A DNA stretch of 63,041 nt, the filler included, from Asterionella formosa (taxonomy: Eukaryota): the NCBI GenBank assembly GCA_002256025.1. It is 20 parts of 20 records of this genome, joined end to end, with 100 filler letters (N's around TTAATTAATTAA, not from the genome) between each part and the next. Parts side by side here need not be neighbours in the genome. Positions count along the whole stretch, not along the records: positions 11,050 to 39,144 come from NKIB01001308.1; 19 more parts are not named here. One strand, written 5' to 3'. The position numbers were made by a program, and so were the translations under genes. Positions 3,355-39,144 of this stretch are shown here, one piece after another. Positions within the stretch are counted from its first letter, which is position 1, and every line of letters begins with the position of its first letter. Under the pieces are notes generated by a model, which saw only the letters and a list, made by a program, of their open reading frames with translations, made no database searches and had not been told where the DNA came from.

Positions 3355-3413
3355 TACCGGTAGGTACATGGTATGGTATGGTATGGTATGGTATGGTACC
3401 AGGTACCAGGTAC
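3355..3413. repeat. (TGGTA)n microsatellite merging into a TACCAGGTA array
   Basis: TACCGGTAGGTACA-(TGGTA)6-CCAGGTACCAGGTAC read directly. Confidence 0.9.
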
Positions 3414-3692
3414 AACAGGGGTCCTATCGTGAGAGACCACGTATGTACCACAGTCAAGTCCTTGCCTTTTTGCTTGGTGACGCTGGTTCCTAAGATACCA
3501 GTACGATAGTTGACAATTGCCCATTCACACATGATACTTACGTAATTTGCATCGAAGTGCATAAACACAGATTCCATCAAGACANNNNNNNNNNNNNNNN
3601 NNNNNNNNNNNNNNNNNNNNNNNNNNNNTTAATTAATTAANNNNNNNNNNNNNNNNNNNNNNNNNNNNNNNNNNNNNNNNNNNNGAAAATTG

Positions 3693-7367: not shown

Positions 7368-9108
7368 CTACTACTGAGTATCTCATCAATCATATCAAGA
7401 AAGTGTTCGACTATGGCAACGACATAGGAACCGCGCTCGAGTTATTAGAACCAATGAGCACATTGGCATGGAAGCCAAGAATGCAAGTGAGCATGGCAAC
7501 AACAGAAGAAGATCGCGCTGCAGAGAATCGACAATATGAGATTGAGTTCAAGGCTGACTATGACACCTACAGTAAAAGGGTACAGGCCTACGAAAATAAT
7601 AATACCAAGGCATATACATTGCTCTGGGAAAGATGCAACAAAGCCATGAAGAACAAGATTGAAGCAAGATCCGATTACAGTAGGATCAAAAATAACCCAA
7701 TGACATTGCTTATGGCAATTAAAGAACATGCACTAAATTTTCAAGAGAATCGATATTCAATGTCGATCATTTTAGATGCAATGAGAACGATTTTGTTCAC
7801 AAAGCAAAAAGAAGGAGAAAGTCTACAAGACTACACCAAGAGATTTCGTGTGGCACGAGATGTGCTCAAGTCACACATGGGAGGACCCATTATCCTCACC
7901 AAGTTCGTTGAAGCCATAGATGGATACAATGAGAATGACATCAAACAACGAGATAAATTTCGCGAACAAGCTTTCAGTCAATTTATGGCATATTTATATC
8001 TCGATAATGCCAATAAAGCTAAATACGGTTCAATTATGACTGGGCTGAACACTCAACAATCACTCGGCAACGATCAATACCCGAAGACCATCACCGAATC
8101 AAATAATGTTCTCAGCAACCATCGGTTTGATGTAACAAATAAATCCAACTACAAGAAACCAGGAGATAATGATAAAGAGAGGAAACAAAAGGATGCAGGC
8201 AAGGAAGATGAAGATGTGAACTTATCGTTTGCACAGTTAGAAGGAAAATGTTACTGCTGCGGAAAAGCAGGTCACAAATCTCCTTCGTGCCGAGACAAGA
8301 ATAAACCCAAAGAGGAATGGGCTATCAACAAGGCCCAAAGCCATGCACAGGCACAGGCTAATACATCTGACACGAGTACAGTTACCTCTGTTAATTCCAA
8401 CAACCCGCCGTCATCACAAGCTTCACAACAAGCAAATGCCAATCAATTTGGATGGACGGGAGCTCATATGAAACTACAATTTTACCAAGCCTCTGAGATG
8501 CGTGACTGGATACTATTGGATAATCAATCAAGTGTCACAGTCTTTTGCAATCCAAAAATGGTTAATAACATTCGAATGTCAACCAACGGAAGCATGCACC
8601 TGGCCACAAATGGTGGATCCATGGTAACTAATATGAAGGCTGATCTTCCAGAATGGGGAGAATTATGGTTTAATGAAAAGGCTATCACAAACATCTTCAG
8701 TTATGCCGAAATGGCAGATAGGTACAGAATTACCTACAACTCTGAGAAAGAAGATGCATTCATTGTTCATTTGCCAGACAAAACAGTTGGATTTGAAAGA
8801 ATTGGGATGAACTTATATGTTTTCAAGCCAACTATAAGAATTAGAGCGGAGAATGCTCAAATGTTAAATACACTTGAAGAAAACAAAACATTTTACACTG
8901 AACGTCAATTTCAGAGAGCTAAGCGAGCTCATGATCTATTTCATGCCTTGGGTACACCATCAATTAACGATTTCAAGGCAATAATTCATATGAATACGAT
9001 CAACAATAATCCAGTGACTACCGATGATATCAAAATTGCAGAGAAAATTTTTGGACCTGACATCGGAACACTAAAAGGCAAGACAACTCGTCGCAAGCCG
9101 CTGCCAGT
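7368..9108 (+). mobile_element. Ty1/Copia (CoDi-like) gag-protease fragment, open frame truncated by both contig ends
   Basis: Gag core (QKEGESLQDYTKRF), CCHC knuckle CYCCGKAGHKSPSC, aspartic protease motif ILLDNQS, pre-integrase-like HALGTPS. Confidence 0.92.
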
Positions 9109-18145: not shown

Positions 18146-19269
18146 AGCTTAGTGCAATTAAGCAGCCAGCACATAGGACAATCTCATTAAAGTGGAAGTA
18201 TAAATGAAACGATTGGCATGTCGTCAACGACACTGCATGGCAATTTAAGTGATAAAGTGAAACAAAATCGTGCATTACTACTGTATGCCGATCAGAATCC
18301 TTCATAGTAGTTTGTGGCGAGGGCTTATACAAGAACGCTCCTCAACGCAACCCCAACTGTCCCTTCTTGGACCGAGAATTTTCCTCAGAGCCTACCAGGT
18401 AAACCATACCTGCCACGACGGCGATTTTTATCTTCATTTGTAAGGGGTAATATTGTATACCGTCCCTGCTTTCTTGACGTTTTCACGTATGACATATTGC
18501 CCGCCTACCACTGTTCTGTGATGTAATCGGAGTAATAGATACTCATGACAAGGAAGTGCTGAAACCCACTATTGCTTTACCTCAACTGCACATGGCGGAG
18601 CACTTGTCGTTGCGAACAGGATTCGGATGCCAGGGCAATATGATTCTAAATGTATATATTTCTTTCACGGGAAACAAAATACAACAAGCCACTATCATAA
18701 TTAGAATGTGTATAGAATAATTGTCGTTCGGAATACTTCCTACAGTTGTTGCGCCTACATGGACCATGCCACCGGATGTTTAACGGTTACAATCCTCAAA
18801 ACGAGCATACCGTCGTTTTCTTACTTCCTAGTATCATCACCACTTTCGGGGTTGCACATTCCATAATTGAACGCAAGTTGCCGTTGTTCTACTGTTATAT
18901 CGTACTTTGTACGTATATTGAGAATAGACGGTTCGAAGAAAAATGGGTCCTCATGCATCTGCATTTTGCTCGACATGAGCAAAAGTGGAAGTCGAAAAAG
19001 CCGAAAAACGTTTTTTGAAACGTAGTTGCCAAACTAATCTTTCAATTTAATAATATATACCCGGTACATGATTCTGTAGCTTAGAGCAAGCCGCACAATA
19101 GGGCAATTGAGCCGGAGAAAATCGTAGGAGTCAAAATGGCCCGGATAAATTTGAATTATCGATGCAACTGTTACTAACTAGACAAGTACCAGGGAGCCTG
19201 GTACCAGGTAGCTAGATTACCGGCACCAGTACTGCAGTTGGAGTTAGGAAATCAAGTCTTCTTCTCATT

Positions 19270-19318
19270 GAGGCTTTCCGGCGACAAATTGTCAATTTCA
19301 GAAAAATGACCGCAACTT
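19270..19318 (-). repeat. Fragment of repeat family D end
   Basis: Reverse complement AAGTTGCGGTCATTTT...GCCGGAAAGC matches 49673-49720. Confidence 0.6.
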
Positions 19319-20738
19319 AGGGCCCTGGGTACACATGGAGAACTTGTTGTTAAGGATAGGATCCGGATGCCAGGGCAATAGTATCGTAAAAATTGTCGTA
19401 GATAGATATGGCTAAATAAATAGTTTCTCTCCTTCTCCATCATACTAATGGAAAATTACCCCTCCGTATGTAGCCAAACACACAATTTTTACTTCCTCAA
19501 AAATGACATTAACTGGTAACCCTTCCTAGATGTTGTAATTCTTGTGAGTCAGACCTCATATCTAAAGTGGTAGGAGGCTGTACGGTGTATCAATGGAAGC
19601 AAATTTGCCTGCTGTCCCATTAGGTATCCAGCCAGCCATATTCAACAATCTTTATCTTGCAAGGTGAAGAACTTTCTCATTTTTCACTTTATGGAAATAG
19701 TTGTCAAATTAACAATATATCTTAGAAAAATTGCCATCCTGTAGAACTTAAAAAATTTACTCAAGTCTAGTTAGTAAAAGCGAAATCTCACCATATTCCT
19801 GGATCTATTAGTAAAATCAGTCAAATTTAGTCTGAACACTTTTAGTACCGGTATACTCTATCTATTGTCTACAAGGAGTTCCTTGGTCATGTCAAACATT
19901 CATATATGCATATATATATTGTCATGATTCTTCTGTTTGCTTTGTTGGTATACCGGTAGTACAACACCAGCTACCTGGTACCTGGTCCAGTACCAGGTGC
20001 ATGGATATGGTACCTGGTACGGGTACCTGGTTACCAGGGTAGGTACCTGGTACCGGGCACACCAGGATCACACTGATGTACCCTGATGCTGTGTTGAAAT
20101 ATATCGCGCCTACTGGTACTCTGGCGCGCTCCAATACTGCCCTGGAATGACCGGTCAAGATCTGTCTCGCGCCGCTCGTTTGCGTAGTATTATTTTGTTA
20201 TATAAATCCTGTCTATTTCCGTTTAGACATTCCTCAGACTAACTATGTAGCCTTCGGATACCTGTCGACATCAACAGCCTAACAGACACACGATGACAGT
20301 GCTGGTACCATCCTTTGGTTACCGATACTGTAGCCATTGTTGTCAATAATAACCAGCAGCCATACGACAGGTATCATTTACTCAATGGATGGTGACACTT
20401 GGAGGCTCAATCCATCCCAATCCGAATGCAATAACGGTATTCTAATGTGAATGCAGGTAACGGGGGTATATCATAAAATGTGCCTTTCATATCACACCTA
20501 TTGCCGGTATTCTGCACGAGTATAATTGGTTATGTACAATACAGTGGCACAGTAATATCATTCTACCGGTACCTGGTACCTACCGGTAGGCTAGTCTAGT
20601 CCATTTTTTTCGATGGATCTGGGTTCATCGACATTATTGCAAAGGGAAAAAAACTTAATAGCAACTCTCGCCATCATTCATCCTCCTTCCTGCTTCGCAA
20701 TCATCATCCATTACCAAAATATATTGATCAAGCTCATC

Positions 20739-21095
20739 ATGACGGCACAACAACTGCGCTTCTTGCTGGTTCTATGCGTCACCATTTTCATGTTGAACGA
20801 ACATGTTGTTGTTGTTTCTGCGTTTAGCATTCCAGTGGCAACTGCAACTTCCGCAGTTTGTACTTCAAGCATTTGTCCCACACATGTCATGACGATGACT
20901 CCAATGACAACAACGATGATGATGGCGGCGGCAGGTACCATCGATCCAACCGCATTTCTTTCCAATATCTTTTCTGCCATGATTCAATCGGATATTATAT
21001 TGGCTGTCCCGATTGTCGTTGCCTTGGCATGTGCCTTTCTTATTGCCTATGGGATTGTTGCTTATGCAAATCCACAAGTGGAAGACGATGAATGA
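20739..21095 (+). CDS. Small plastid-targeted membrane protein
   Basis: Signal peptide ending VSA-F, Thr/Met-rich transit peptide, C-terminal TM helix (LAVPIVVALACAFLIAYGIVAY) and acidic tail; ATG at 20739 preferred over 20613. Confidence 0.75.
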   Translation: MTAQQLRFLLVLCVTIFMLNEHVVVVSAFSIPVATATSAVCTSSICPTHVMTMTPMTTTMMMAAAGTIDPTAFLSNIFSAMIQSDIILAVPIVVALACAFLIAYGIVAYANPQVEDDE

Positions 21096-22369
21096 ATGAA
21101 TCACTCTCAAGTCGCTATTATATGTAGTTTTATAATATAATGGATTGATATGATGATTTATTTTTGGTAACTTGATTGTTCATGAATGATTTGAGAGCCA
21201 AATGCTATATACAACCAGTGTTATCTTTGAACAATATAAACTGGTAAGATCGTCGTTATTTATTATTCCATCACTACTACTATTATAACTTCATTATATA
21301 TCCACTCCTTTGTCAGTGTACCATAGGTTTAGTATAAATCTAGGTTTAAACAGTATCATACTACCATGTTTGGACCCCTCACAAATGCAGTATCAGTGCT
21401 AGCAGGGTACAGCCAAGTATCACATGATGGCATCACATCCATTGTCACTTGTAAAATAACTGTATGCAAGATGACAGCATCACACTAATATTGCACCAAC
21501 TATAATTCATTTTGTTTGTGGTTGAAATAAACATCAGCCCCTTGCTGATCAAAAATGGATCAGATCTAGTTTGCTTCCTGACTGATCCTTGATTTCTTGG
21601 TGGACATATCTGCATTTGACCAGTCAATGGTTTATCGATGTCTTGGCCTTTAGGTGAAATTGCTGCCTTAGAGTTCATTTATAGGTTTGAGAGACCATGT
21701 CCTGAAAGTTTCTCTCTTGACCATGACATTTAATACATGATCATCAACCATTCAATTAATCATGTCATATTCTGTGGTAAATGATTCTAATCAGGTTAAT
21801 ACTAGTGAAGGAAATGATTGAGATGCTCATACCCTGATTCATCCAAACAAAACGAGTTACATGATGTAAATGATATCCTCTGGATAACAAGCAAGGAAAG
21901 GACAATTGCTCAATGTGATGTTGTACCAACAAAGAATAGAAAGTACTGGTAGGTACATACGCACTACAATCATCATACATACGGTATTTCATTTGCCTAT
22001 CCTGCACCATGTAGGTGTATCAAATGCGCATACAAATATATTGAGAAATGCAGGCGAGTACCTGGTACCTGGTACCTGTCACCGGTACACGACATCGTCT
22101 ACCGGTACTGGTACATTTATTAGCAGTCATCATGATATGATAGTATATAGTCTCCATTGATGCGAATGTATAAATAAATATATTCAAGTCTGAAATGTCC
22201 TTATGATTATGGTCATAATTCAACATTTTCTACGATTTGGCTTCTCTTACATATATATGTATATGTATGTATGTAATACAAATTCAGCTCAATGTCGTTA
22301 CTATCAATTCATATATTTGATTACGAAGCTAGATAGATTACTCTTGAACTTCCCTTTTTCCATTTTCAC

Positions 22370-24184
22370 ATGTGGATATCTCGACTATCTGCTTCTCTTC
22401 AAAAACTTGGGCATGATGTTACAAGTGATTTGGCATCCGAAGAGGCAGAATCAGTATCAGGATCCATCACGGCACATTCGGTTCTATCTCGGTCGTCCTT
22501 TTTGGAACGAACCAGACTCGCACCAGTACGTGAGAGAGGAACTTCTCATCAGTCTGATGAAATTTCCGTCATTTCCAGTTACTCCATACCGGAAGAAGAT
22601 CCACGAAGTATGGTGATTGCCTATGAACGAAAAACGTCAGCGTCTCAGCTAGCAGCAACAATAACAACAACAACAACAACATCGTCATTATTGTGGCAAA
22701 GGGGAGCGCCACAAAATATAAAAGACCAATTGGAAGAAAAGGACACGCGAGTGAAGGAATTGGAACATTTGCAAAAGCTAGATCGGGAGGAATTGAAAAA
22801 AGTACGAAAAGAATTGAGCGATTTGAAATTAAAGTACCAGAAGGAATCCAAGGAATGGAAATTACGACATGAAGATTATTTGACGCAAACGCATCGACTC
22901 AATGAACGAATTGAAGCATACGATCGAGATTTGAACGATGATGAAATGATGCATCAATTCGAAAGCGACATTATCAATGGAGCCTACGATAGTGATGGTG
23001 AAGGGAATGATTTGCCTCCGGCTCCCAATGTCTATCACATGGACGAGGACAATCAGACGGTTGGTACCACCAAAAGCAATAAAATTACCTTCAGTTTGCC
23101 AAGTTGGGGGACTATAGGAGGTCCCAAGCGACGGAAAGAACGTGATGAAGGGCAACAACAAGCTGAACAAGAATATATGGAAATGCTTCAAACCAAATTA
23201 CTAAAATCAAAAAAAAAGATGCAAGTCTTAGTGAATCAATGCGAATTGTTGGACGAAACCCTAGAAGAAGAAACAAAGATAATGCGAAGTAAACTCAAGT
23301 TACAAGAGGAAGATAAATGCGATCTTGAAAATGAGTGGAGCGAAAAAAATTATCAAGCAGAATATCAATTCAAACAGAAAGAACAACAATTGTTGGCGAA
23401 AGTGATATCCAAGCAAGAGCAAATTACACGACTCGAAGACTTGGTGGACGAACTTCGAGACGCAGCTGATATGAAATCCCGTGGGGCGCTAGATATTGAC
23501 GAATTTGCTTCTATTGTCGCCTTGAACAGCATGAAGGAATCCTTTGACGTGCTGTCCAAAAAGAAGGATGCGATGGAGGCAGATTTGGGTCGACAAATTC
23601 TGTTATTAAAGGGAGAGTTAAAGCGTCTTCAAAACGACAACGAAAAGCAAGAAAAACTAATTGACAGGTTGGAATTTGGAGATTTATTAACAGCACTCGA
23701 ACTTGACACAACAATCGCCCCTGCTCAAAGTGATAATGAGGAAGGTGTGACAAAAACAGGGGCGAACAAGGACTCTAAAAGGAATATTCGCGGAGAAGAA
23801 TGCAGACGGAATCTACAACTAACGGCGTCGACAAAATCGTTGGAATCGAATCGATCAGGTGAACTACACCCTCGCACCATTTCTGAATCCAAGTCTCTTG
23901 ATCCCTCGATTGATGGTGCATCGATACCTTCGGATATCAAGGAAGATATAAATGATTTGATAGATTCGATTAGTTTGTTTGCCGATGTTAATGATCTCGT
24001 TGGTCTATCAGACTGTCCCGCTTCAGCAGACCGACGTCGAAGTTTAATGCTCCGCCGGCCAGAACATCCAGTAGATTCAACTTCATTTCGTAGAGAGAGC
24101 ATGCAAGTACAAGAGAACAAGTGGTCAATGATGGATGATGACATAAGAAAGAAGCAACAGAGAAGGCTTAGTCGCTTTTTATAG
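22370..24184 (+). CDS. Long coiled-coil protein, function unknown
   Basis: 604-aa ORF with extended E/K/L/Q heptad regions. Confidence 0.8.
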   Translation: MWISRLSASLQKLGHDVTSDLASEEAESVSGSITAHSVLSRSSFLERTRLAPVRERGTSHQSDEISVISSYSIPEEDPRSMVIAYERKTSASQLAATITTTTTTSSLLWQRGAPQNIKDQLEEKDTRVKELEHLQKLDREELKKVRKELSDLKLKYQKESKEWKLRHEDYLTQTHRLNERIEAYDRDLNDDEMMHQFESDIINGAYDSDGEGNDLPPAPNVYHMDEDNQTVGTTKSNKITFSLPSWGTIGGPKRRKERDEGQQQAEQEYMEMLQTKLLKSKKKMQVLVNQCELLDETLEEETKIMRSKLKLQEEDKCDLENEWSEKNYQAEYQFKQKEQQLLAKVISKQEQITRLEDLVDELRDAADMKSRGALDIDEFASIVALNSMKESFDVLSKKKDAMEADLGRQILLLKGELKRLQNDNEKQEKLIDRLEFGDLLTALELDTTIAPAQSDNEEGVTKTGANKDSKRNIRGEECRRNLQLTASTKSLESNRSGELHPRTISESKSLDPSIDGASIPSDIKEDINDLIDSISLFADVNDLVGLSDCPASADRRRSLMLRRPEHPVDSTSFRRESMQVQENKWSMMDDDIRKKQQRRLSRFL

Positions 24185-24742
24185 TTACTTGACAGGCGAA
24201 TTAAAATGAGGGGATTGACGGTTGATGTATTACTGTAGTATCTATACATGTACAATAGAATCCCAAAAAATTAAAGTGTGCTTGATTCACATATACCAGA
24301 TAATATTCCTTCCTACTAGCCAATTTCTATATAATGTTAGTATTTCCACTTCGACTGCTCTAGAACACCAGGAATATATCTCGGCAATGGAGTCTTGGTG
24401 TATTTGGGTGATTTGGAACCGGCAATGCATACATGGACCAGGACAATTTGGGAATGCTCTACATTTGGAAGATATTGAGTTGGTCCCATGAGGTATAAAT
24501 ATCCAACCAAGTTCTACAATCAATTTTTTTTTGAGGTGGGACTCTCCAGAATAAATATTTGAAAAATATTGATTGATTAACTATCAACTGCTCCATGTGT
24601 ATGCATTTAATGCTCTGACCTACATTCCAGCCCAGTAGCCTAGCATGTTTTACATGATCACAGCCATGCAAATGTTCCTTAAACAACAATAAACTTCACA
24701 GATATGAATATTACCCATAAGAATGACCAAGACAGATTTTCC

Positions 24743-26007
24743 TTAAACAATAAAGACTGCAAGAACAATGGCAATGCAAATGACAGAGATGGCATTAATG
24801 GGCCACATCATTGCATCACTTGTGGTGGGGGCCTTGGTGGAAGGGGGAGTGCTTGCTGGTGATCCACTTGCAGAAGCAGGGGTGGGTTGTGACGTTGCAG
24901 TGGACCCAATTATACTGGGAGGAGGTGTCATTGATGGAGCTGCAGTCATAGGAGCACTTGATGGTGCAGATGTAGGAACTCCACCAGCAGCTACTGGGGC
25001 CACTGTAGCAGGAGCCATACTTGGAGCCCCCATGGTATCAATAGCGGTAGGGTTCATGGTTGTCTGTTCCGTACCATTTCCACAGCAAACTCCCGAGAAC
25101 ATGGATTGGTATTCTGCACAGGTGAAGTTGGGGTTAACTGAATTTATGTACAACTCAAGATACCCACATGCAGTATCATTGAAATCTGAACTAGTATCGA
25201 TGAACACACGTGCTGGATCAGGAAGGAGAGTGGAACCACCACAGATTCGACAAGCACCTGCGGAGGCATTAGTGTTGTTACATCCACTGTCAGTATTGAT
25301 GTGGTGGAAATGGATGAAAAGAAGATGGTTAGAGCAGGCTAATGACAATGAGAAGATGGCGTTGAAATGGAATGTCCTCACCAGAGCACACCAGCTGTGG
25401 CCTGCAAGCCAGTGCACTCTTCTGTGGAAAAGGTAGCCAATAGTTGCGCAGCTGCGCAAGTAACATCAATAATTGGCAGGGTTGGATCAGGAATCATAGA
25501 ACCATCCTCACATAGTGGGCAACTCAGCGTAATACCAGGACAACCACAAACTGACTGTTCTGGGTTAAGGACAATGGGGTTAGCTGGACAGGTGGATTCA
25601 CTAAAGTATCCAAGATAATAATCTAGCTCCGAGCAGTTTACATTCCAAAGAGGGAGTGCATAATCCGGATTTCCAGGTGAGGTCCCATTTGAACACAAAA
25701 AGCACTCCTGGACAGAGCCAGGGCACCCACACAAAAAGTCCAAATTAGCAGATGATGTAGCATTCATACACTCTGAGCTATCCGACGGGAACGATTTGAT
25801 GAAATCTTCGACTTGCCCACACGTCGCGCCAATGAGCAGAGGAAGCAGTGCCAAATTTGGATTGTCCTGTGGCACACTTGTAGTGTTCAGTGACAAATCT
25901 GGGTTTGGCACAGCCGAACCATCATGGCACACAGTGCAGTTTTGCGCCAATATAGAAGGAGCAGCACAGATTGCAATAGTAAGGAGATAATGAAGCGCCA
26001 CTTTCAT
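24743..26007 (-). CDS. Secreted Cys-rich repeat protein with mucin stalk and probable GPI/TM anchor; exons 26007-25382 and 25286-24743
   Basis: Signal peptide MKVALHYLLTIAICAAPSILA; four CxxCxxG..P.P...C...CGC-type modules; a 95-bp GT-AG intron (25381-25287) joins the two ORFs as VLC|GC; S/T/P/A stalk; hydrophobic C-terminus. Confidence 0.85.
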
Positions 26008-26583
26008 GGTAACAGCTGGGTGCCACTGCTGATCTGGAGTCAAAGGAAGTCCTCATGGGCATGGTGAGCGATGCTGATATACCAAACAAAAAGCCAAATA
26101 TCAAGCAACAGACCTTTCGGACAGGGATTAAGCAGGAGGGAACAGTAGTTTGAGTTCCTAGTCAGAAAATGTGAGATAACAAGCAAGCAGCAAATGTTGC
26201 AGATATTTGAGCAAAGCAAAGATTTTGAACGTGTTTGCATATAGTAAATTTTATGATTGAGAACCGAACCCCGAAACCTTTTTAAGTTGTCAAGGAACAA
26301 TCGAATCGAAATGATATCAATTATGGATATAAATAAATGCTGTACCGGTAGTTGGAAATGCATACCGGTAATTGTTTTGCCGCTTGGCTGCTTTCCATTG
26401 AAGTAGAAGACGGTTTGTACAGTGGGAAAGAATATGCATGAGAGCTACATAGATTCCGTCGGGGTCAGAAAATGCGCGCACAGAGCGATCATAGAATTAC
26501 CGTATGTTTGTCGACCCTCGTGTGCTGCCAAGCTAAGATGGTTGGAAGAAAGGTGTTTAAAACTTCTGGGGAGCTCGAAGGAA

Positions 26584-26667
26584 TTGGGATGCCTGATGAC
26601 CAACTGGAATCAGGCGCTGATGAGTCAGAATGATTAACAGATTCATCTCTCATGCCGACGAATCAAA
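26584..26667 (+). ncRNA. Degenerate type III hammerhead-ribozyme-like fold
   Basis: Stem I TGCCTGAT/ATCAGGCG, core CTGATGA (26617-26623), stem II GTCAGAATGA/TCATGCCGAC, then GAA; the NUH triplet and A15.1 are non-canonical. Confidence 0.4.
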
Positions 26668-28260
26668 ATAGGTCTTCAAGGACTGAGTACCAATGATAAA
26701 TGCTATTGGTACTCAGTTCTGGAATCAACTAAGTATGAATTGTACTAGCCTGTTGTTACTTGTTACTCAGAAGAATATTGAAATTTAATTCATGCTGCAC
26801 AATCCATCGAAATTTTGAAGAGTTGTTAATTGTTGATCCTCGGTTGATACGGTTGTTTGTTCAAGCAATTGGTCAGGCTTAGTTCATTTGGTCAGTATCA
26901 ATACAGAGAAGAAAGAATTTTACCACCCCCACCACCCGCCTTTAGCATTTGAAACTAGATACCTGGTCTGAGGCATCAAGTAACAATCAATACTCATTTG
27001 GAAATGAAGTTGGTCAGTTGGCACATACTCGAATATGTTTCGTGAGAAAAGTGATTGGGACTTTTGCCCCCTTTTTCTACTGTTTCCTTTTGCCTTGAGC
27101 GAGAAAAAGATGATACAAGAAACAGATGATATGACTGGTGCTCCTAGCGATATTGGGTCCGTGTCTACAGTTATAGATTATATGTTACGAGGACAGAGGG
27201 AAGTAAATTCAATTACCCCAACGTGAGAAAAAAGGATAGTTGATTGAAATTACTTAAATGAATAAAGAAGAAAGTGAACTCCGGTTGTATTTAGAAAATC
27301 CCAGATGACAACAACCCCCCCCGCCTGCAATGAGTGTATATATATGCATAAGTATTATTGTTAGCTATCATGCAACGACAAAGATGTATGTACGCGAAAA
27401 TAATAGATCGGTACATGATCTAGAATATATATACGAGTACTCATCTCTGCCTCCATAACTGAATACATATCAACATATATTAGCTAACTCTATTAAGGTC
27501 TACCTGCTACCCGTATACCGTAAGAATATTGAGCGAACTGATACGATTTACAATTCACTATGATACCGATATATGATTGTGAAGTGTTCTATAGACAAGC
27601 ATGTGGTAGGTACCATGGGTACCATGGTACCAGGTATGGTAGTTAGTGGCAACATCATGACAATGATGATACGCCTATTGTAAACAGATAAATTACGAAT
27701 TATAAATCAATTATTGTTTTCAGCTACTGTTGTTGTTGTTGTTGTATATGTCTAATTGATGTATAACAGTTATGTGCGAACTACTACTAGGGTTTTGATC
27801 CGGCAAGAAATCATGGAGATGTTGTCGTTGCAGTCGAGCGCCATTTTGTTTCCGCCGATTTTCTACTATTTTAGCTATTTTGCAATGAATATCAAAGCTA
27901 TCAAGTCAACAGTTGTTTCACTGCTTGCTAGCGACACATGTATTCTATCTAAGAAAATATTAAATGTGTTAAGCAGTTGTATAAGATTGAAAATTGAAAA
28001 ATCATTAAATGATAATGAGAAATTTCTCATGTTCGATTCATGGCTGAGCGATTGTATAATTATATATGTTTGTTCAGTATATAGAAAATCATGCATTTTG
28101 TGTACAGGTATGTTCATATGATGCATACCGGTATGTTCATACTTCATACTAGTATGATGCATATCAGTATGTACCACAGCCGTTGGCACTTCTGTACATT
28201 TAGCTATACCGGTACTAGGCTACTACGGAGTTTTGTGAAATACATGTATTGGTAAACAAT

Positions 28261-28457
28261 GAGATTTCTCGAATAAGGAATCATAACAGCACTCAGAGTT
28301 GTGATTAGAAAAAAACATTTAACCCCCCCCCCTTTCGTAGCAAGGTTCGGAAACTGGTTTTTTCAGAAAATCATTCATCAAAATTGAGTTTTTGATAAAA
28401 TTAAAATTGATTGGCCAGATCGAAACCGTTTGAAATTTCTAAATGTCTAACTAATAT
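28261..28457 (-). repeat. Dispersed repeat family D (MITE-like) copy
   Basis: Reverse complement of about 49740-49937 (TCGTAGCAAGGTTCGGAAACTGGTTT; GAGATTTCTCGAATAAGGA). Confidence 0.85.
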
Positions 28458-29988
28458 TTGCGAGAGCCTAGTGGCTATTGCGACTGACTTGACTACTACT
28501 ACCACCGGTAAATAGATAACTAGGAGTTTGTATTGAGGCTTTGGCCTTCTCATTTGGAATTTTTATTGAAGCTTCTATGGATTCTCGAATTGGGGCTACT
28601 CAAACTGAAGCTTCCCGAATTGAAGTTTACCTCTGGGTTTAAAAACTAGTTTTATATTCTCATATTTTCTGTTTTACAATTATTTATAGACTGTATTACC
28701 TTAGGGTTGCGCAATATTACCGGAGGATTCGAATTTGAGTGCCTGTCAGTGCCGCAATTCAGTTTCAGCAAAATGACCAAAACTTGCAGTTTACCAGTAT
28801 ATTTATTACCTACATAATGAAAATGCATACTACTGGTAGCATATACAGAATGGTCTCAAAACAAGGCATCATCACAGTGCTTTGCATGTTGAAATCACTA
28901 TACTGTTGCAGATGCATGTGTTTGATCACTGAATTGGATGCTCGTCATTCCATCAATTATTCAAACGGTCTGGATTATAATGTATTTCTTGTAAAGACTG
29001 ATACAGTACGGGATTTGATTACTGTATTATAGCCATTGTTGGTGTGGTATTTATTTTGACTAACAGTAATTCAGTATGATACTGGAAATCGTTTTTTAGT
29101 ATTCTGTGTCTATTACTGGAATACATCATTGCTTTTTGATGGAGAATAATTCCCAAGGAGGATTTAATATAACTACTCGGTGAGTATTATTAATATGGAG
29201 TACAATTTACGATATAATATTCTGTTGACAATTTTAGTAGATTCAGCTACTTGTGTGTTTTCTAAAAGAGTGAGATTAAATTAAATGTAATTTTGAAATG
29301 AAGTTTCGATTGAAACATGGCAACTACTACATGTTTCTGAAATGAATTGTTCTTTTTTCCTTGGAGGTGAGGTTCTTTATAGTTCCTACAATTGTAGCAA
29401 AGTAAATTACATCCTCGTCCTTGTAACATAGTAGTACTATACTATATCTATCTAGCCTAGATAGATTCTAGGACATAGATGTTGCTTGACTGAAATACTT
29501 CTTTCAGGTAGCTCCAATATCATCGATTTTTCTTCAATTCTTTGGACAAAACTGATTTGTCTCTCCAATCACTCTCAGTTTAGGGTTAGGTGAACTTGTT
29601 TGGTAAACATAGGGAAAAACTTCATATAATTTGCCCTTTCAACATTGTTCTTTATCAAATGTCTGAAGGTTGTTAATCTTGATACATCATATTGTGCATT
29701 GTTCCCTCAAACACAATGACTTGTAGGGAAATGTTGTCTTCACACAAAAGTAGAGACCTAACTGGGAATCAGGAATCAAGAATTCTTCTGTGTTTCAAAT
29801 GGCGGGAGGCATTCATGCTTGGTGTTGATGACTCTATTACCGGTAAATGACTCTGTTTTAAATAACGGTATGATAACCATTATCATCATCATCATCATCA
29901 TCGATGCTAATTACCAGGTACCTGGTACCGTAATACCTTTGCTCACCATTTCAGTGCTCACCATTTCAGTGTATTATAAAGTAGTACG

Positions 29989-30561
29989 ATGATGGCTGCA
30001 ACAAGAACAAGAGCAACAACAACAACTCCTTCCAAGATTTTGTTCTTGTACAAGCAATGCCTTCGATCCGCACAACGGATTCCTGAATTGGATCAACGAG
30101 ACACGTACCAAAGTTACATTCGACAAGGCTTTCGTGATGTCAAGCAGGGACGACAAGCTGTCATGGCCATGAAGGATGCTGAGGAACAACTGGAGAGAAT
30201 GGATTACTATCATTCTATACGAGAACAAAGTATGAGACTAAAAATGACAGAATCACAGAAAAAGGTATTACCTAGTAGTACTTGTACCGAAGTGTCAGCG
30301 ACAGCAGCACCAAGGCCTGATACTGCCAGTCAGACCAGTACTGCGACAATTAGAGATACCTCCATTCTTCAGCAATGGATACTTGAGGCCATTCCCGATC
30401 TGCATGAGGATGATGTGCACCGATATGCGCAGCAGTTATCCGAAGATGGATTTGACTCACCTTTTCTGCTTCAAAAAGAATTGAAACTCAACGACCTTTT
30501 CTTTATGAAAAAGGGACATTTACGAGCACTGGTCAGGGCACATGGGATTTCAGACAAATGA
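29989..30561 (+). CDS. LYR-motif (Complex1_LYR) protein with C-terminal SAM-like domain
   Basis: ILFLYKQCLRSAQRIP...YIRQGFR LYR signature; C-terminal WI...YAQQLSEDGFDS...L...DL..MKKGHLRAL resembles SAM. Confidence 0.75.
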   Translation: MMAATRTRATTTTPSKILFLYKQCLRSAQRIPELDQRDTYQSYIRQGFRDVKQGRQAVMAMKDAEEQLERMDYYHSIREQSMRLKMTESQKKVLPSSTCTEVSATAAPRPDTASQTSTATIRDTSILQQWILEAIPDLHEDDVHRYAQQLSEDGFDSPFLLQKELKLNDLFFMKKGHLRALVRAHGISDK

Positions 30562-30843
30562 TTGCCGTCACATGTAGATGAGGCTAAGAATGCCACATAT
30601 TATATTGCAAACGCGCAGAAACTTTCTTATATGATTGTGCAACCTATTGAAGTCGCACGGAACTTGCCAAAGAAGGCGTTCGTGTTCTAACATTAACGTA
30701 AAATGTACAGATGATTAAGAAAGCACTTGAATTTTCTAAACATAATCACATAAACTGGTAACGTGGGCAAACATTGGAGGGTTTAGTCACCTATACATCG
30801 GAAAATTTCCAGTAATCATTTGTACAATTTGATGTATAGTTTT

Positions 30844-32490
30844 TCAAATGGCAACTCTTGGTGAAAGACAAATTTTGAATTCTGGTTTCGCTTTCATAGT
30901 AACAAAGGTAGTAAAGGTGAATTCAATATTCTGCAAGGTGGGAGCAATATGCAATTCAAAGGCTCGGAGGATGGGTGCCAGAATAAGCTGCACCTCCATT
31001 GTTGCAAATTGCTGTCCTACACAGTTTCTCCCTCCAGCCGAAAATGGCAAGTAACAAAATCGATGTCGCTTCTCCTCATTATCAATTCCCCCCGTCGGTA
31101 ACCACCGCTCCGGCGAAAACACAAGTGGATCAGGCCAATACAATGGATGTCGATGCAATAAATGAGGCGAAATAACAAGTCGTGTATTGGCTGGAATGTA
31201 ATGTCCCATGAAATTCTCGTCTCTTGATGTGCGCCGAATGATAATCCCAACAGGTGGATACAATCGTAGCACTTCTTTTAAAAATGCTGCCAAGTAGGTC
31301 ATCTTGTTCAATGCCTCCAAATCAATGGTTTCTGATCCTGGTGCATGTTGAATAATGTCGTCATACACACGCTGCTGAACTTCGGGGTACTTGACAAGAG
31401 CAAAGAATGCCCAATAACACCATGTTGACGTTGTTTCGTGACCTGCAACCAAAAATGTTTTAGCCTCATCTCGTAGCTCAATGTTGCTAAGTGCCTTATT
31501 GGACCGTTCATCATTTTCTGCATTTGTTCCCTCATCCTTGGCATCAAAGAGAAGCTGCAGTAATGATTTATGACTACTTGATGTAGATGAAGATTCTGAT
31601 AATGCTGCTTTGCTCCTTGCGTTGTGAATGACTTGGTCCACAGCTTCATTGAGACATTTGTTAGATCTACGTGTCTTCGGGTTCAGCCAAAGATCCATCC
31701 GAGGATACCCAAGGACAGCAAACACAGCAGTCAAAACAGTTGGTTTTAGGGATTCCAACAAAGATGTGCTTAAACTGTCCGAGCCAGAGGACAACTTGTC
31801 ATCACTATCACTAATTCCCACTGAATTTTGTTTCAACGTCCATTTCTTTTGCAATACATCCAAGGCATGAAAGTCATGAGAAAAGGCAACATCTCCAATG
31901 ATATCGAGGGTGAGAGCGGAAAGATGTTCAGCAACGTCAATGTCGTGCCCATCCATGGCCGTTTTGCTCCAGAACGAAATCAACGTCTCCACCTTGCTTG
32001 GGATTGACGCATTCAACGACTCCTTCAGAAAGCCAGTGTTGAAGGAGGGTTGGATAATGCGCCGATGCCGACTCCAAGCCGCTCCTTCCAACGTTACGAG
32101 GCCGTCACCAAGAATGTTCCTTAGTAGCGGAATCTTCTTGGGGAAGCGAACTGGAGTTTGACTGGACGACGCGGTCAGGACTAGTTTGACAATGTCAGCA
32201 TTTAATAGGAGCACAGATGGCCTGCCAAATAGATCTGTATACTGCAGCATGTCCACATCCTTCACACTGGACCTGCTGATGGCATCCGCCCACCAGCGCT
32301 TGTGAGGCGCCAGGAAGGGTGCGCGAGAAATATCAAGGAAATAGCCAAACAAAAAGGATGTTTTCGGTGGACCTGGAAGATCGTTCAAGGGGGATGTAAG
32401 CCATCGTACGTAAGAGCGGGCGAAGCGATAGAACAGGACAAGCAACGCTAAAAGTGCGGCGGTGGGGAACGCATTAGCCATCACCATCAT
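30844..32490 (-). CDS. Cytochrome P450, ER-anchored, intronless
   Basis: N-terminal TM and PGP hinge, I-helix AGHETT, EVLR (ExxR), PERW, haem motif PFSAGGRNCVG. Confidence 0.97.
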   Translation of the reverse strand: MMVMANAFPTAALLALLVLFYRFARSYVRWLTSPLNDLPGPPKTSFLFGYFLDISRAPFLAPHKRWWADAISRSSVKDVDMLQYTDLFGRPSVLLLNADIVKLVLTASSSQTPVRFPKKIPLLRNILGDGLVTLEGAAWSRHRRIIQPSFNTGFLKESLNASIPSKVETLISFWSKTAMDGHDIDVAEHLSALTLDIIGDVAFSHDFHALDVLQKKWTLKQNSVGISDSDDKLSSGSDSLSTSLLESLKPTVLTAVFAVLGYPRMDLWLNPKTRRSNKCLNEAVDQVIHNARSKAALSESSSTSSSHKSLLQLLFDAKDEGTNAENDERSNKALSNIELRDEAKTFLVAGHETTSTWCYWAFFALVKYPEVQQRVYDDIIQHAPGSETIDLEALNKMTYLAAFLKEVLRLYPPVGIIIRRTSRDENFMGHYIPANTRLVISPHLLHRHPLYWPDPLVFSPERWLPTGGIDNEEKRHRFCYLPFSAGGRNCVGQQFATMEVQLILAPILRAFELHIAPTLQNIEFTFTTFVTMKAKPEFKICLSPRVAI

Positions 32491-32659
32491 GGCGTCGTGA
32501 AACCCAAGACGCCACTACCAGTATAGGGAAAAATAAATACTATTATTTGACTCGATAAAGAAAATAAAACTCGTGCTGGAAAGCAATTTTTGAGCAACTA
32601 ATTCCCTATCATTAATTACAGATCGTTTTACTCACGGAAGGCAAGACTCGCCCGAGGTG

Positions 32660-32845
32660 CTCTCGTGCCTGCGACAGGAGTAACGGTATACATGTGTTCG
32701 AGCCTGAGTGGCGCGAGTAGGTTGACCTTCTCGCAAAGCGTCTATTGGTACTCAAGGCAAGACAGGCCAGAGGCACTCACTCACGTGCCAGCGAAACGAG
32801 TATATATGTGTTCGAGGCTGAGTGGCGCGAGTAGCTTGACCATTC
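32660..32845. repeat. GC-rich repeat family F, two tandem copies upstream of the P450
   Basis: TGTGTTCGAG(C/G)CTGAGTGGCGCGAGTAG(G/C)TTGACC occurs twice about 115 bp apart; a diverged reverse-complement copy is at 41942-41992. Confidence 0.75.
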
Positions 32846-34664
32846 AAGTGGCGCCCCCGGCTCTGCGAGAATGTCACCCTACGAGTGCCATCGGAGGAAG
32901 GTCCGGTACCAGGTAGTCCCCATTTCATGCGCCCCTTTTCAGTAACAATTCACTCCCAATGATTCATGCCATACCTGCCGGACGAGATAGGCCAGCTTTC
33001 GCTTAACAAAATGTTCGTTAAGTAATTTTGGAAAACGTTAGTCTTATTGACAGATGACGATTTGCAGAAGCAAACTCTGAACGTGACTCGGATTTGCCCC
33101 TGATCAACACCTTAAGAAAACCGTCTTCTTACTTCGGAATACAAATAAGAATCATTTACCGGTAACTTGCTGACTTAGAATAGAATTTGCTGATTACGAA
33201 TAGAATATGCTGACAACGACTACCGGTAGAACTTGAGGGCGAATACGAATAGATTTTCTGAATGACCCTTGTGATGCAGACGAAGTGCCTGGTAGGTAAC
33301 TGCAAGTTGCGTTCATTTTGCTTAAATAGACAATATAATACAGAATAAAGAATGCTAAATATTTAAGTTCAGCACAATAATCGAAATTTGCTGGTACTGG
33401 CACCTAAGAATGTAGACTACCTGGTACCGTATGTCCATGAGCCACGGTAAATTTGGTCCGATACCTGGTACCACCTTGTACGATGATGCATGAGGCGTGA
33501 TAATTATTCAGGGCACAATTTTTATGTACAAACAAAGTTTTACGTATGTTCAAACAAACATACCGGTACCATAGCAATATTAGCATGGCTATTAGTACAT
33601 ACCGGTACTCGATACCGGTACCGGTGAGCGATCTTGCGCATCAATACAGATGTATATAGGGTTAGTGTTATATCATATATGTATCAGAACTCAACAATGA
33701 AAGAACTCGACTAACCCTCATTGTATACTTTGGTGTTGACTTAGAGAACAAGTTACACACAAGGATTAACAAATAAGCTCATATATTCAACAAACACTAC
33801 TACTTCTAGTTAGATACTTCACTTTGAATTCAAAAAGAGTCCAATTAGAATTAATAATGTTGATGTCCTCTCAAGTTCCAGTGGTCCCATTGATGAAGGA
33901 TAACAACATACTAAACATCAAGATTCAAACCTCTTTGTGTATCCTTACAAGCCAGGTCGACATTTGGAGTCTTACAGCAAAGATATGATCAATTGACACT
34001 CAGGGGAAGCTTGTTGATTGATTTCAGTAAATCCTGTGACATGGCTAACACATATATCTTCAGTCCAGCAGATTGCTTGCTTGTTCTCCTATTGCTACAG
34101 AATATGCCTAATTGATATCGCCTTGTCTGAATGGATGAGCGTTGCAATGCACCCAGATACTCAGTCCTTTGACAGTTTCTACAAAATCATGGTGAGGTGG
34201 CTGAAGCATTATTGCACTCATGACATGTTCCTTTAAGTCAGCATCAGCGGATGTGGATATTATGAAAACTCGATAAAACCGTTCAATGTGCTGTTGATGA
34301 ATGTCACTGCCTGTCTCAAGACTTTAAAGAATTTCCTAAAACTCGTGATAACTCATCCAGAAGATCAAGAGGTTTCCGCCAAGGAAGATTTGAGGTTGAT
34401 TGTCGTTTTGCTTGATTGACAATGCGCGGCAACAAGTGTTTGAATGGAACAATGAAAAGAACACAAAATAATTGATTCGCTTGGTTTTGACTTACTTCGA
34501 GAGTCAACAATTATTCAAAGATCAACTCAAGCACATCCTCAAGCATGAATTCTACCATAAGCCGAAATCGACTTTGCATCGCTGAAGGCAATTGTGTTAT
34601 GTCGAGAGAACGCTCGTGTCTGATGTCAATTTTATCGCGTGCCTGGTGTCAATTTTCTAAGACA

Positions 34665-35000
34665 AAATCGTATATAAATAGTTGAAGTTGAAGACGATTC
34701 CATGACGCATCAAGAAAATAAGCGTGACTAGTGTCAATTTTAACAAAAGATCGTCTTCGCATTGCTAAATGCAGTCCTGTGATGTATCAAGAATACAACC
34801 ACCATTTCAAGTGTAAATTTGTACATGATAATTTTATACTCAGTGGTAATGGCAGGGCACATGCATTTTAATGCAGCCGGCCACGCATGGGATATGAAAC
34901 AACGGTCAAACATAAGGTTCATGGAGTTAATATTACTAACACTACTAACCTTGTTGCTGTTCGGACTCCTGTTCCTGTTCCTCTGGCGTAGAAATTCTAC
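34665..35000. repeat. Repeat family C nested inside the gypsy element
   Basis: Colinear with 60500-60785 (GTGACTAGTGTCA; GCATTTTAATGCAGCCGGCCACGCA; TTACTAACACTACTAACCTTGTT). Confidence 0.85.
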
Positions 35001-35287
35001 GTTGAGCAAATTATCATACTAACACAGCCCACTCTATTCATGTTTTTCTTCCGTGCATGTTTTACATAAGCAAATCCATGGGTTAACCCTGTGATGATGT
35101 CTGGTTAGGGTTCAGTGCCGAGGGCCATACCTGCTGACTATTATGAATCTGCCCAGGAAATTTTAGTGGTCATGAACCCTCCTGTTGGTCAGTTAGTGGC
35201 CGATGTGCCTAATAAAAAACCAGCAGAATGCTGAACAGATCGCCTTAACAGAAGTATGTGCAACAATAGCAACTAGCTATGCTATGA

Positions 35288-35295
<8 letters not shown>

Positions 35296-35327
<32 letters not shown>
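35296..35327. repeat. (TA)n microsatellite
   Basis: Read directly. Confidence 0.9.
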
Positions 35328-37988
35328 TTATGAGCAACAGCACATTGAATATGTCTTACGTCAATCATTACCTGAATAACTTTTGTTATCACCGCTATTG
35401 TAACGCGGGATGCATTTCATTCTCATGTCATTAGCAACCCAAGGATTGGTGGCTGCGTTGTACTATATACATGACATAAGATGAATATTAATTGATTGCG
35501 GTGGATCCTGATCTTTAACTTATGAATGGATTGTACTTCAGGACATTTTGTTGTAAAATCGAACATTTAAAATTAAATTATACCATGCATAGCAGGTATG
35601 ATCCCATCTTTTTTTCTTTGCCAGTACTCAGCATGATGCTCCCAAAATTTAATCCGTCAGCTTGTATCTTGCAACAGAAGTACCTGGTCTTAGTACCTTC
35701 TGCGAGTTTGCTCATTTGTCCAGCTGATTATTTTATGACGGATAATTTACAAATACCATGTCCTGTCTGCATGGTGGATATATCAGTGTTTTTCTGCATG
35801 TCATGCATTCCTATAATGATACGCACAGAACATTTGCACAATGGTTTGATATATTTTGATACACCTATTAAGGATTATGTTTACACATGGAACATTCAAG
35901 CTCCTAACTATACAGATACGGAAAGATGCTGTTATCATGGCCGAAGTCCTCCAGCACAATTCTATATGAAATGGTCTGTTGAAGAAACTGACTCATTGGG
36001 ATATCGATAAACTCCAACCGACTTCAAATTTTGGTCTTCAAATTTTAAAACAGGATTGAAATGGAACTAGTCCATTTGTATGGTTACCTATGCATACATC
36101 AACAAACTTTTATATCAATGAAAGGATTGTTAGTTGCAGATACTACACTCATGCGTTATCCTGATCGTAATTTTCCTTTCCATATTTTTTAATCATGTTT
36201 CTGATTTTCAATTAAGAAACTTTCAAAGAATTTCGCTCTATGTCATTGAATGCGATTCTACATGTTCACACTGATCATCATATTTTATCTTTATTACCCT
36301 ACACAGAAACTCAACGTGTTCTCCGGTGGAGGATTTATAATGAATAATATCTTCTCACTTTTCACATTATGAAGGGTACTGATAATGTCAAATATTAAAA
36401 CTTCTATCTCTCGCCTCCTGAGGCTTGTGTCTTTGGTGGGGGATGATATTGGACCGAAATCTTCAGCATCAACATCCATTTCTACTTTCTCAATTGAATT
36501 AGATGATAAACCTTTGTTTACCTGTTTCCTCAATCATCCAATTTTGGCAGACAATATTCAATATCCTCTGGATTATAACTCAATACATGATAGACAATTG
36601 CTGGATATACAATTGATTCTCAATAAACAACTCATCTCATTCTCAATCAACAAACACATCCGTTAAAATTTCCCTCTATCAATTTTCATCATATACATTT
36701 AATGTATTTTGTGAAGAATCCAGGAGATACTTGACGTATTGTTATTCCTACATCACTATTGTATCCTATTATTTATTGGTATCATCAGATGTTAGCTCAT
36801 GTGGGTATGACAAGATGAAATGCCACAGTTTCTACACGTTTTTACTATCCTTCATTAAAAGCAAGAGTGGAACATATTGCAAGCATATATGAAACATGGC
36901 AAAACGTACAAAATTATTTGGTGCTTGGTTTTGGTGAACTTCCACTAAGGAATGCATTGTTATTACAATACTCAGAAGTCACAGTGGATTTCATTGGTCC
37001 ATGGAAGATAACAGTGACTGCACAAGCGATTGAATTTCATGCTCCAACTTGAGTTAACACAGTCACCAATTTACCAGAAATTTCACATATCAATAATAAG
37101 ACATCAGAATATATTGCGATGAAATTTAAAAATGATTGGTTAGACAGATATCTCCGTCCAGAAGTTTGTAGAGATGACAATGAAAGTCAATTCATGACAA
37201 TGGAGGTCAATTTACTGGTATTCCTTTCATACACATGTAAGTATTGAATGGAATTAAAATTGGGACCATTACAGTCAAGATTCCACAAACAAATGCTATC
37301 CGTGAACGTTTACATCAATCTATCAGTAACAGTCTATGTACGAGTTATGTTAAAGGCTCATCCTCCAATCAAGGAATTTCAAGTTCAGAATTATTGTGGA
37401 TACTAATATTTATAGTACATTGTGTATTTTCACCAGGAACATGGGTTTTCCAACATGATTTGATCACAGATATGTAATTGATATTGGGATATCAATGTCG
37501 ATAAGTGATAATTGACAAATGACTACGTCGTGATAATTTCCGTCATCGTTCTTGCGATTACAAAGTTGGTGATAAGGTTTCAATCCTACTATTGGATAAT
37601 CCTAGTACTACCTTGGATAACCAAGGACGAGGTCCTTATTCTATTATTCAAGTATATGCCAATGGTACAGTTACTTTTCAACAAACTATGCATAATACGG
37701 AACGAATTAATATTCATTACATCAAACCTTTTCAAAGGTAAAAGGTTTTCCCTTGATGTGGGAGAGTGAGCGATCTTGCGCATCAATACAGATGTATATA
37801 GGGTTAGTTTTATATCATATATGTATCAGAACTCAATAATGAGAGAACTCGACTAACCCTCATTGTATACTTTGGTGTCGACTTGGAGAACGAGTTACAC
37901 ACAAGGATTAACAAATAAGCTCATATATTCAACAAATACTTCTACTTCTAGTTAGATACTTCACCAGTTCCCAGTTCCCAGGTACCAG

Positions 37989-38880: not shown

Positions 38881-38956
38881 CAGGTATCTGGTTGTGTTCA
38901 GATACCGGTACATTGGTTCATTTATATACCGGATATACCATGCTCAAGGTACCAGG

Positions 38957-39144
38957 TGAGCGATCTTGCGCATCAATACAGATGTATATAGGGTTAGTGT
39001 TATATCATGTATGTATAAGAACTCAATAATGAGAGAACTCGACTAACCCTCATTGTATACTTTGGTGTCGACTTGGAGAACGAGTTACACACAAGGATTA
39101 ACAAATAAGCTCATATATTCAACAAATACTACTACTTCTAGTTA
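38957..39144 (+). mobile_element. LTR family B, third copy, truncated by contig end
   Basis: Near-identical to 37767-37954; preceded by TACCAGG. Confidence 0.92.

Follow-up and report, generated by a model that had tools for sequence, protein, structure and literature searches.

Chains of TA-delimited CC(W)GG palindromes in non-coding DNA of the diatom Asterionella formosa: probable excision scars of terminal-inverted-repeat transposons

In a 63,041-base stretch of the genome of the diatom Asterionella formosa (the window), short palindromes with a CCGG or CCWGG core between two TA dinucleotides recur in the non-coding DNA, either alone or in chains. We propose that the TACCGGTA palindromes and the TACCWGG chains are probably excision scars, left by transposons with terminal inverted repeats (TIRs) that duplicate a TA and terminate in CC(W)GG. 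This origin is supported because TIR ends of the CC(W)GG type with TA flanks are present in the same DNA, because 62 of 109 segments between successive TAs match cuts staggered by 2-3 nt at CCA..TGG ends, because a solo long terminal repeat (LTR) has gained blocks at TA sites, and because the motifs are kept out of open reading frames (ORFs). The motifs and arrays had been described in an earlier note on this DNA, and that observation is confirmed. Its attribution of the arrays to scars is upheld in part, on the evidence just named; its further step, repeated re-insertion at scars, finds support in only a few cases.

The window consists of 20 separate pieces, one of 28 kb (11050-39144) and 19 of about 1.74 kb, joined by spacers of the form N44-TTAATTAATTAA-N44, and the recurrence of the chains in unrelated contigs, as claimed earlier, is borne out across these pieces. 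ORFs of at least 150 aa span 27,644 of the 61,141 non-N bases (45%), and the remaining 33,497 bp are referred to as outside ORFs. Contigs of the Logan collection from four public runs (X1, X2, X6, X8) were aligned over 19100-39099. Among the 24 public runs listed, 20 contain the stretch or part of it and five contain at least half of the sampled words; the runs containing window DNA come from freshwater or lake metagenomes and, in one case, from an algal culture.

Both motifs are far more abundant than base composition allows. TACCWGGTA has 31 matches in the window versus a mean of 0.21 and a maximum of 2 in 100 dinucleotide-preserving shuffles, and TACCGGTA has 33 versus a mean of 0.28 and a maximum of 2. 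The comparison with a Markov background that the earlier note had proposed gives the same picture: outside ORFs a third-order model predicts 3.85 TACCGGTA, 0.72 TACCAGGTA and 0.87 TACCTGGTA, while 33, 11 and 19 are observed, a 9- to 22-fold excess. Across the background models the enrichment is about 10- to 100-fold, specific, and confined to non-ORF DNA. Composition-matched control palindromes are unenriched, with no match in the whole window for TAGGCCTA, TACGCGTA, AACCGGTT, TTCCGGAA and CACCGGTG and a single match each for GACCGGTC and TAGCGCTA. In TAGGCCTA and in TAGGWCCTA, which has no match either, the order of the core is reversed. The order that does occur, with TA on both sides and left-tip bases followed by right-tip bases between them, is a feature of excision footprints of the Tc1/mariner type. 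A scan of viral contigs for a two-unit chain returned three matches.

The earlier note had seen no arrays in host coding sequences. In agreement with this, 63 of the 64 full motifs fall in DNA outside ORFs of at least 150 aa, and the lone exception (11671) is situated at the extreme end of an ORF. The association with TA extends to the shorter cores: outside ORFs a TA adjoins at least one side of 58 of 93 CCGG and 58 of 89 CCWGG sites, and inside ORFs of 10 of 48 and 7 of 36, respectively. The 31 CCWGG 9-mers almost always sit in a GG...CC context (GG in 22 and 19 of the flanks, CC in 25 and 24). The flanks of TACCGGTA are near-random, without an extended consensus.

The arrays and clusters identified in the window are as follows.

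3355-3414: chain of CCGG, GG, CATGG, five TGG and two CCAGG units, containing a perfect (ATGGT)6.2
19187-19226: short chain, CCAGGGAGCCTGG-TA-CCAGG-TA
19951-20059: the array on which the earlier note centred, about 15 TA-delimited units (CCGG, CCTGG, CCAGG, TGG, CGGG, GG and others)
20564-20591: mixed chain TA-CCGG-TA-CCTGG-TA-CC-TA-CCGG-TA, with the ATG at 20739 following about 150 bp downstream
22059-22110: chain upstream of the ORF 22337-24181; in three runs, Logan contigs begin or terminate at this chain
27609-27638: chain with full-length CCATGGG and CCATGG, then CCAGG and TGG
29912-29932: chain CCAGG-TA-CCTGG-TA-CCG, 57-77 bp upstream of a LYR-family ORF
33418-33475 and 33561-33627: two clusters between the 5' side of a P450 gene and an LTR element
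40340-40439 and 40625-40688: two clusters upstream of an ESF1-like ORF (39246-40019, minus strand)
41192-41256: cluster of CCGG and CCTGG units
48894-48957, 49179-49242 and 49335-49381: three clusters in the same 1.7-kb piece
55612-55636: short chain CCTGG-TA-CCAGT-TA-CCAGG

Clusters are present at all 15 chain places named in the earlier note, which are the entries above except 27609-27638 (the place given there as about 22040 corresponds to 22059). In the array 19951-20059 the order is TACCGGTA ... TACCTGGTACCTGG ... TACCAGG ... GGTACCTGGTACGGGTACCTGGTTACCAGGGTAGGTACCTGGTACCGGG. When the arrays are cut at each TA, the most frequent units are CCTGG (18), CCGG (12), CCAGG (8) and TGG (7), accompanied by G, GG, CC, CCG and CCATGG. 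The 62 segments mentioned above, from 16 array regions, all fall within the 16 strings that combine one of {'',C,CC,CCA} with one of {'',G,GG,TGG}. Contig ends from lake metagenomes accumulate at the arrays 20564-20591, 22059-22078 and 29912-29955 in independent runs, and one contig is 30 letters short at some point within 33244-33648. Among the alignments listed, none showed a joint across element B (described below). The arrays break assemblies and are possibly polymorphic too.

The origin of individual units can be followed in a family of LTRs, of which one copy is scarred and the others are not.

33623-37964, plus strand: degenerate LTR retrotransposon with LTRs at 33623-33822 (LTR1) and 37765-37964 (LTR2), the unscarred comparator
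38955-39144: third LTR copy (LTR3)
49465-49667, minus strand: solo LTR (LTR4) in the array-rich piece, about 78% alike to LTR1-3

The repeats are 200 bp long and, as the termini of the LTR element, 96-98% identical; they start with TG and end with CA (TGAGCG...CTTCA), and a GGGAGAG purine tract precedes the 3' copy. LTR1-3 share 95-98% mutual identity. Compared to these, LTR4 holds the extra blocks TACTGGTA (49476-49483), TACCGGTA (49531-49538), TACCGGGGTA (49553-49562) and again TACCGGTA (49612-49619). The added blocks measure 6-8 bp and read CCGG plus TA twice, CCGGGG plus TA once and CTGG plus TA once, and LTR1-3 have a plain TA or TG where LTR4 carries each of them. Because LTR4 has gained blocks of the CC(N)GG plus TA type at TA sites, the units arise as insertions at TA. 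The form of the blocks would be the one required of an excision scar, and neither point mutation nor slippage would be expected to give it. Indels of the motif type are absent from other repeat pairs in the window, namely 162-610/3685-4135, 28253-28790/49669-49945, 34673-35000/60501-60781, the two Copia pieces, 7368-8967/52124-53723 and 5004-5425/11247-11667.

Elements with suitable ends are found in the same window. By scanning for TA-flanked inverted ends we identified a complete element, here called element B; ends of a related TIR family (fam2) occur in the window as well.

37985-38884, plus strand: element B (900 bp, non-coding), with the TIR ends CCAGGAAGGTGCGGTAATT and, in reverse complement, CCTGGAAGGTGCGGTAATT; TA lies outside both
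33299-33325, plus strand: fam2 TIR end, TA then ACTGCAAGTTGCGTTCATTTTGC, preceded by CCTGG-TA-GG-TA
28765-28790, minus strand: fam2 TIR end, TA then AACTGCAAGTTTTGGTCATTTTGC, preceded by CTGG-TA
49668-49692, plus strand: fam2 TIR end CCTGCAAGTTGCGGTCATTTTGC, which the solo LTR now abuts
19300-19322, minus strand: fam2 TIR end whose tip is degenerate, ..CCCTAAGTTGCGGTCATTTTTC

The TIRs of element B are 19 nt long and match at 18 of 19 bases, with the mismatch at base 3; their tips read CCAGG and, inward from the other end, CCTGG. The Mos1 repeat likewise begins with CCAGGT, as do many chain ends here. Element B sits amid scar-like units (CCCAGG-TA[B]TA-TCTGG), and is judged multi-copy because dozens of variant contigs from the four public runs cover it (38027-38756). 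A related TIR core, AAGTTGCGGTCATTTTGC, is present at four more places in the window, three of them found by pattern match versus 0.02 expected. A search for the element B TIR in metagenome contigs gave 13 single matches, which were rejected as chance: the sequences are unrelated, range from 39 to 68% G+C and have no similarity beyond the pattern.

A TA is present outside five of the six TIR ends of element B and fam2, in one of the five only after conceptual removal of a later LTR. Two fam2 copies (33304 and 28785) with different flanks and interiors share the tip ACTGC directly after the TA, and a third has CCTGC. Because copies with different flanks have this tip in common, the terminal five bases would belong to the element and the TA would be the duplication. 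GG-TA stands directly before three of the six TIR ends, or four of six if the later LTR insertion is conceptually removed, and among non-coding TAs 224 of 2702 (8.3%) are preceded by GG; we calculate a binomial probability of about 0.01 for three of six and of about 0.0006 for four. The TIR elements thus seem to have been caught at the edges of existing scars, in the few cases that support re-insertion beside them.

We propose the following sequence of events. A cut-and-paste TIR element similar to Tc1/mariner would insert and duplicate its target TA. Upon excision the transposase would cleave the 5' strand within the element, 2-3 nt from either end, such that the flanks retain CC(A) and (T)GG. 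End joining would then place CCGG (2+2), CCAGG or CCTGG (3+2 or 2+3) or CCATGG (3+3) between two TAs, and shorter or one-sided joining would yield CCA, TGG, CC, GG and CCG. As each scar would offer two TAs beside bases resembling a transposon end, a new insertion followed by excision could add a further unit and the chain would grow, with replication slippage contributing a few perfect runs. Scars would persist only where an insertion of 6-7 bp is tolerated, hence outside coding DNA, and would be commoner 5' of genes.

The steps resemble what is described for known elements. Excision of mariner type involves a cut at the 3' end and another 2 or 3 nt inside the 5' end (PMC2642840), Mos1 makes cleavages staggered by 3 bp and duplicates the TA (PMC5481204), and Stowaway scars in grasses retain 1-4 bp of the TIR between the duplicated TAs; in one case a grass element had inserted anew at a TA belonging to an earlier scar (PMC1925063). 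Imperfect TIRs are found in natural mariner elements (PMC4505599), so the single mismatch between the TIRs of element B is unremarkable. Expression of TIR/Mariner elements has been reported in diatoms (PMC5963040).

The motifs are not spread evenly around genes. For 19 confident ORFs, 25 full motifs fall in 8150 bp of upstream-only DNA and seven in 6042 bp of downstream-only DNA, a weak comparison since the motifs are clustered and hence not independent. The 28-kb piece has two gaps between convergent genes; neither contains a motif, but both are short. Some enrichment on the 5' side of genes does exist, although it is weak, and the density at gene 5' ends asserted in the earlier note is retained as a modest bias; at the four gene starts it named (20739, 29989, ESF1 and 48768) clusters are situated 57-790 bp upstream. 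Such a bias is compatible with insertion into open promoter DNA and with a regulatory role alike. Co-option of the arrays for regulation or methylation, also suggested in the earlier note, is speculation.

Several observations weigh against the origin as excision scars. The two scar types behave differently: the 16 array regions contain 12 CCGG and 26 CCWGG units, and outside them are 21 CCGG and five CCWGG, so that CCGG is mostly isolated and CCWGG mostly arrayed, which the model does not predict. Two transposon families that differ in stagger and in their habit of local re-insertion would account for the two classes, but this is a guess. The full 3+3 scar TACCATGGTA was found once only (1/64), and the one-sided forms TACCATA (6) and TATGGTA (8) are unenriched relative to third-order expectations of 7.2 and 7.8. 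Element B is the sole complete TIR element in the window, and among the 105 window ORFs of at least 90 aa Pfam reveals no transposase of Tc1/mariner type; given that element B is non-coding, an autonomous copy would lie elsewhere in the genome. Both ends of element B read CCAGG on the same strand, which a 5-bp CCAGG duplication with a 14-nt TIR fits equally well. A gain of blocks by LTR4 is preferred to four precise losses, in the ancestor of LTR1-3, on grounds of parsimony. Finally, the CC(A)GG motif is at least sometimes an insertion target and not a product, as illustrated by the LTR element. Three of its four left junctions and all three right junctions, including two from Logan contigs, have CC(A)GG next to TA: the left flanks are CCGG, CCAGG and GCAGG, the right flanks are CCAGG and CCAG..G, and one contig junction reads CCAGG-TA. 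LTR4 has GCAGG on one side and CCAGG on the other, and CCAGG precedes LTR3. Because the element is flanked in this way, the motif serves as a landing site too, which keeps a target-site explanation alive.

In one such explanation, TA-CCWGG-TA would be favoured as a target and cleaved with the two cuts 5 bp apart, CCWGG would be the target duplication of several mobile elements (element B and the LTR element) instead of a transposon tip, and the arrays would originate otherwise. The direct CCAGG repeat around element B and the flanks of LTR4 and LTR3 speak in its favour, and 5 bp is a usual length for the target duplication of LTR elements. Nevertheless, we regard it as quite improbable. The main argument against reading CCAGG...CCAGG of element B as a 5-bp duplication is the shared tip of fam2, since this related family keeps a tip other than CCWGG (ACTGC, ACTGC, CCTGC) despite different flanks. 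Moreover, excision would leave CCWGG-CCWGG, yet the arrays always have a TA between cores, and the roughly 100-fold motif excess would have no source. Alternatively, the palindromes may be binding sites of a sequence-specific factor, arranged as homotypic promoter clusters at which TIR and LTR elements merely land. Their palindromic and clustered nature, their exclusion from ORFs, their 5' bias and the flanks of the LTR element all agree with such sites; what they leave unexplained makes this alternative unlikely. Neither the truncated units (TGG, CCA, CC, GG, CCG) chained via shared TAs, nor the two core lengths side by side, nor the 6-8-bp insertions with TA duplication inside the solo LTR, nor the identity of the core with the TIR tips follows from binding, and TACCGGTA lacks the extended consensus. 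A Grainyhead-type site, ACCGGT, was rejected as the principal explanation, because AACCGGTT has no match and the CCWGG form does not fit it.

A further possibility is that the arrays are mini- or microsatellites, with a 7-bp (or 5-6-bp) unit that arose once per locus, spread by slippage or unequal exchange and then decayed. Four perfect short runs do exist: (ATGGT)6.2 at 3368-3398, (GTACCTG)3.0 at 22058-22078, (TACCTGG)2.6 at 49335-49352 and (GGTACCA)2.7 at 3395-3413. They alone display the hallmark of minisatellites, head-to-tail copies of a single unit that differ mainly by point changes, and slippage is likely in the (ATGGT)6.2 part of 3355-3414. Elsewhere the arrays are irregular, as the earlier note had stated: Tandem Repeats Finder assigns 19972-20031, in the largest array, a period of 7 and 9.1 copies with 66% matches and 14% indels, and unit lengths within a single array range from 2 to 7 nt. 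Exact period-7 neighbours share the central W in 6 of 11 cases, and neighbours at most 14 nt apart do so in 9 of 22, which is the expectation for independent events, whereas slippage of one unit would lead to near-complete agreement. Because of this irregularity and the W agreement of 6/11, slippage of one unit is not sufficient for the arrays and acts on a few perfect runs. Simple slippage, which the earlier note had set against its own explanation, thus operates in runs such as 3368-3398 and 22058-22078 and does not account for the irregular arrays. In addition, the unit family occurs at 15 or more unrelated places and in 21 isolated TACCGGTA copies that slippage cannot seed, and the insertions in LTR4 are single units within unique sequence. 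A satellite origin is consequently very unlikely, and excision scars of TIR transposons stay the preferred explanation.

The LTR element deserves separate consideration, as it seems to integrate site-specifically into the motif of the scars or tips and to duplicate 5 bp there. One of the LTR copies lies precisely at a fam2 TIR tip. A perfect 7-bp repeat, CCAGTTC x2.6, separates the LTR end from the TA that precedes element B (37964-37981) and resembles a small slippage event within a CCAGG flank. The region 33.8-38.4 kb is very high in copy number in contigs of the four runs. Reading through 36861-37262 gives three homologues (89, 66 and 65% identity) with a precomputed integrase zinc domain, PF17921; the short ORFs of the interior have a faint Pfam match to rve_3 only (E = 0.084), and the interior yields no reverse transcriptase match and no relevant PDB match. 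We tentatively suggest, as a possibility that we hold to be doubtful, that the transposase prefers a TA beside its own leftover tips, so that every excision would yield two improved targets and arrays upstream of genes would grow autocatalytically, and that the unrelated LTR retrotransposon 33623-37964 has come to use the CCAGG core of scars and tips as a safe place for integration. In that case the arrays would form a ledger of past transposition as well as a self-made insertion platform, which two classes of transposon would share within a compact genome.

The closest known counterparts are the Stowaway/Osmar elements (Tc1/mariner) of Triticeae. Their scars consist of TA, 1-4 bp of each TIR tip and TA, several scar variants occur per site, and a new element occupies the same TA by an earlier footprint (PMC1925063). 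That case concerns one intron site followed over a phylogeny, whereas here the scars would form a genome-wide k-mer signal of about one full motif per kb outside ORFs, stack in chains of up to about 15 units and are known from one sequence alone. With Mos1 and mariner-like elements the candidates share TA flanks, short imperfect TIRs and scars that fit a 2-3-nt stagger (PMC5481204, PMC2642840, PMC4505599); unlike there, the 3+3 scar is rare here (1/64) and the 2+2 (CCGG) and 2+3 forms dominate. The form of TACC(A/T)GGTA also matches a footprint made by another route. The canonical Sleeping Beauty footprint TAC(A/T)GTA is palindromic with an ambiguous centre, owing to overhang pairing with a central mismatch. 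By that route TACC(A/T)GGTA would need a 5-nt overhang, and we know of none described for the Tc1/mariner superfamily. Ty3 and Tf1 are target-specific LTR retrotransposons. The LTR element described here resembles them in that one short sequence, CC(A)GG beside a TA, repeatedly borders it in DNA upstream of genes, except that its apparent target is a transposon scar or tip, as judged from only four LTR copies and two contig junctions. Excision scars therefore have a single-locus precedent in plants, and for a genome-wide, array-forming version in a diatom we found no description in the literature searched, papers in subscription journals on diatom mariner-like elements being outside its reach.

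Other repeats and genes in the window complete its inventory. For the cytochrome P450 ORF (30847-32514, minus strand), the closest named relatives, at 43-47% identity, come from Epithemia, Seminavis, Thalassiosira and Odontella. The segments 42925-44664 and 44765-46504 are 98.85% identical without gaps, each consisting of one open 580-aa frame with a Copia-type RVT_2 domain, and are young Copia copies or alleles. A 1600-bp pair in inverted orientation (7368-8967 and 52124-53723; 96.4% identical, gapless) lies in open frames of 578-580 aa without a Pfam match and represents a repeated gene or a mobile element of no recognised family. An ORF fragment at 47880-48344 (minus strand) carries a Plavaka transposase domain (E = 1.8e-10), implying that another class of DNA transposon is present in this diatom. 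The repeat 5004-5426/11247-11667 (98.8% identical), both copies of which start with TGTTAAAG after unrelated upstream DNA, is probably another LTR. After a coding repeat with a 24-bp period (59469-60374; PT disordered repeat, E = 4.6e-17) comes the telomere-like hexamer AACCCT x2.7 (60370-60385).

Excision footprints are usually studied locus by locus. If the proposed origin is true, scars dominate the non-coding k-mer spectrum of this DNA, with most CCGG and CCWGG sites outside ORFs flanked by TA, and stacked scars would allow transposon traffic, target choice and the outcomes of end joining to be read from genome sequence. Cut-and-paste elements would thereby create new short repeats, and possible CpG and CWG methylation sites, in diatom promoters, and the LTR element would show how another class of element may exploit the scars. 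For annotators of diatom genomes, it would provide a simple explanation of a very abundant palindrome.

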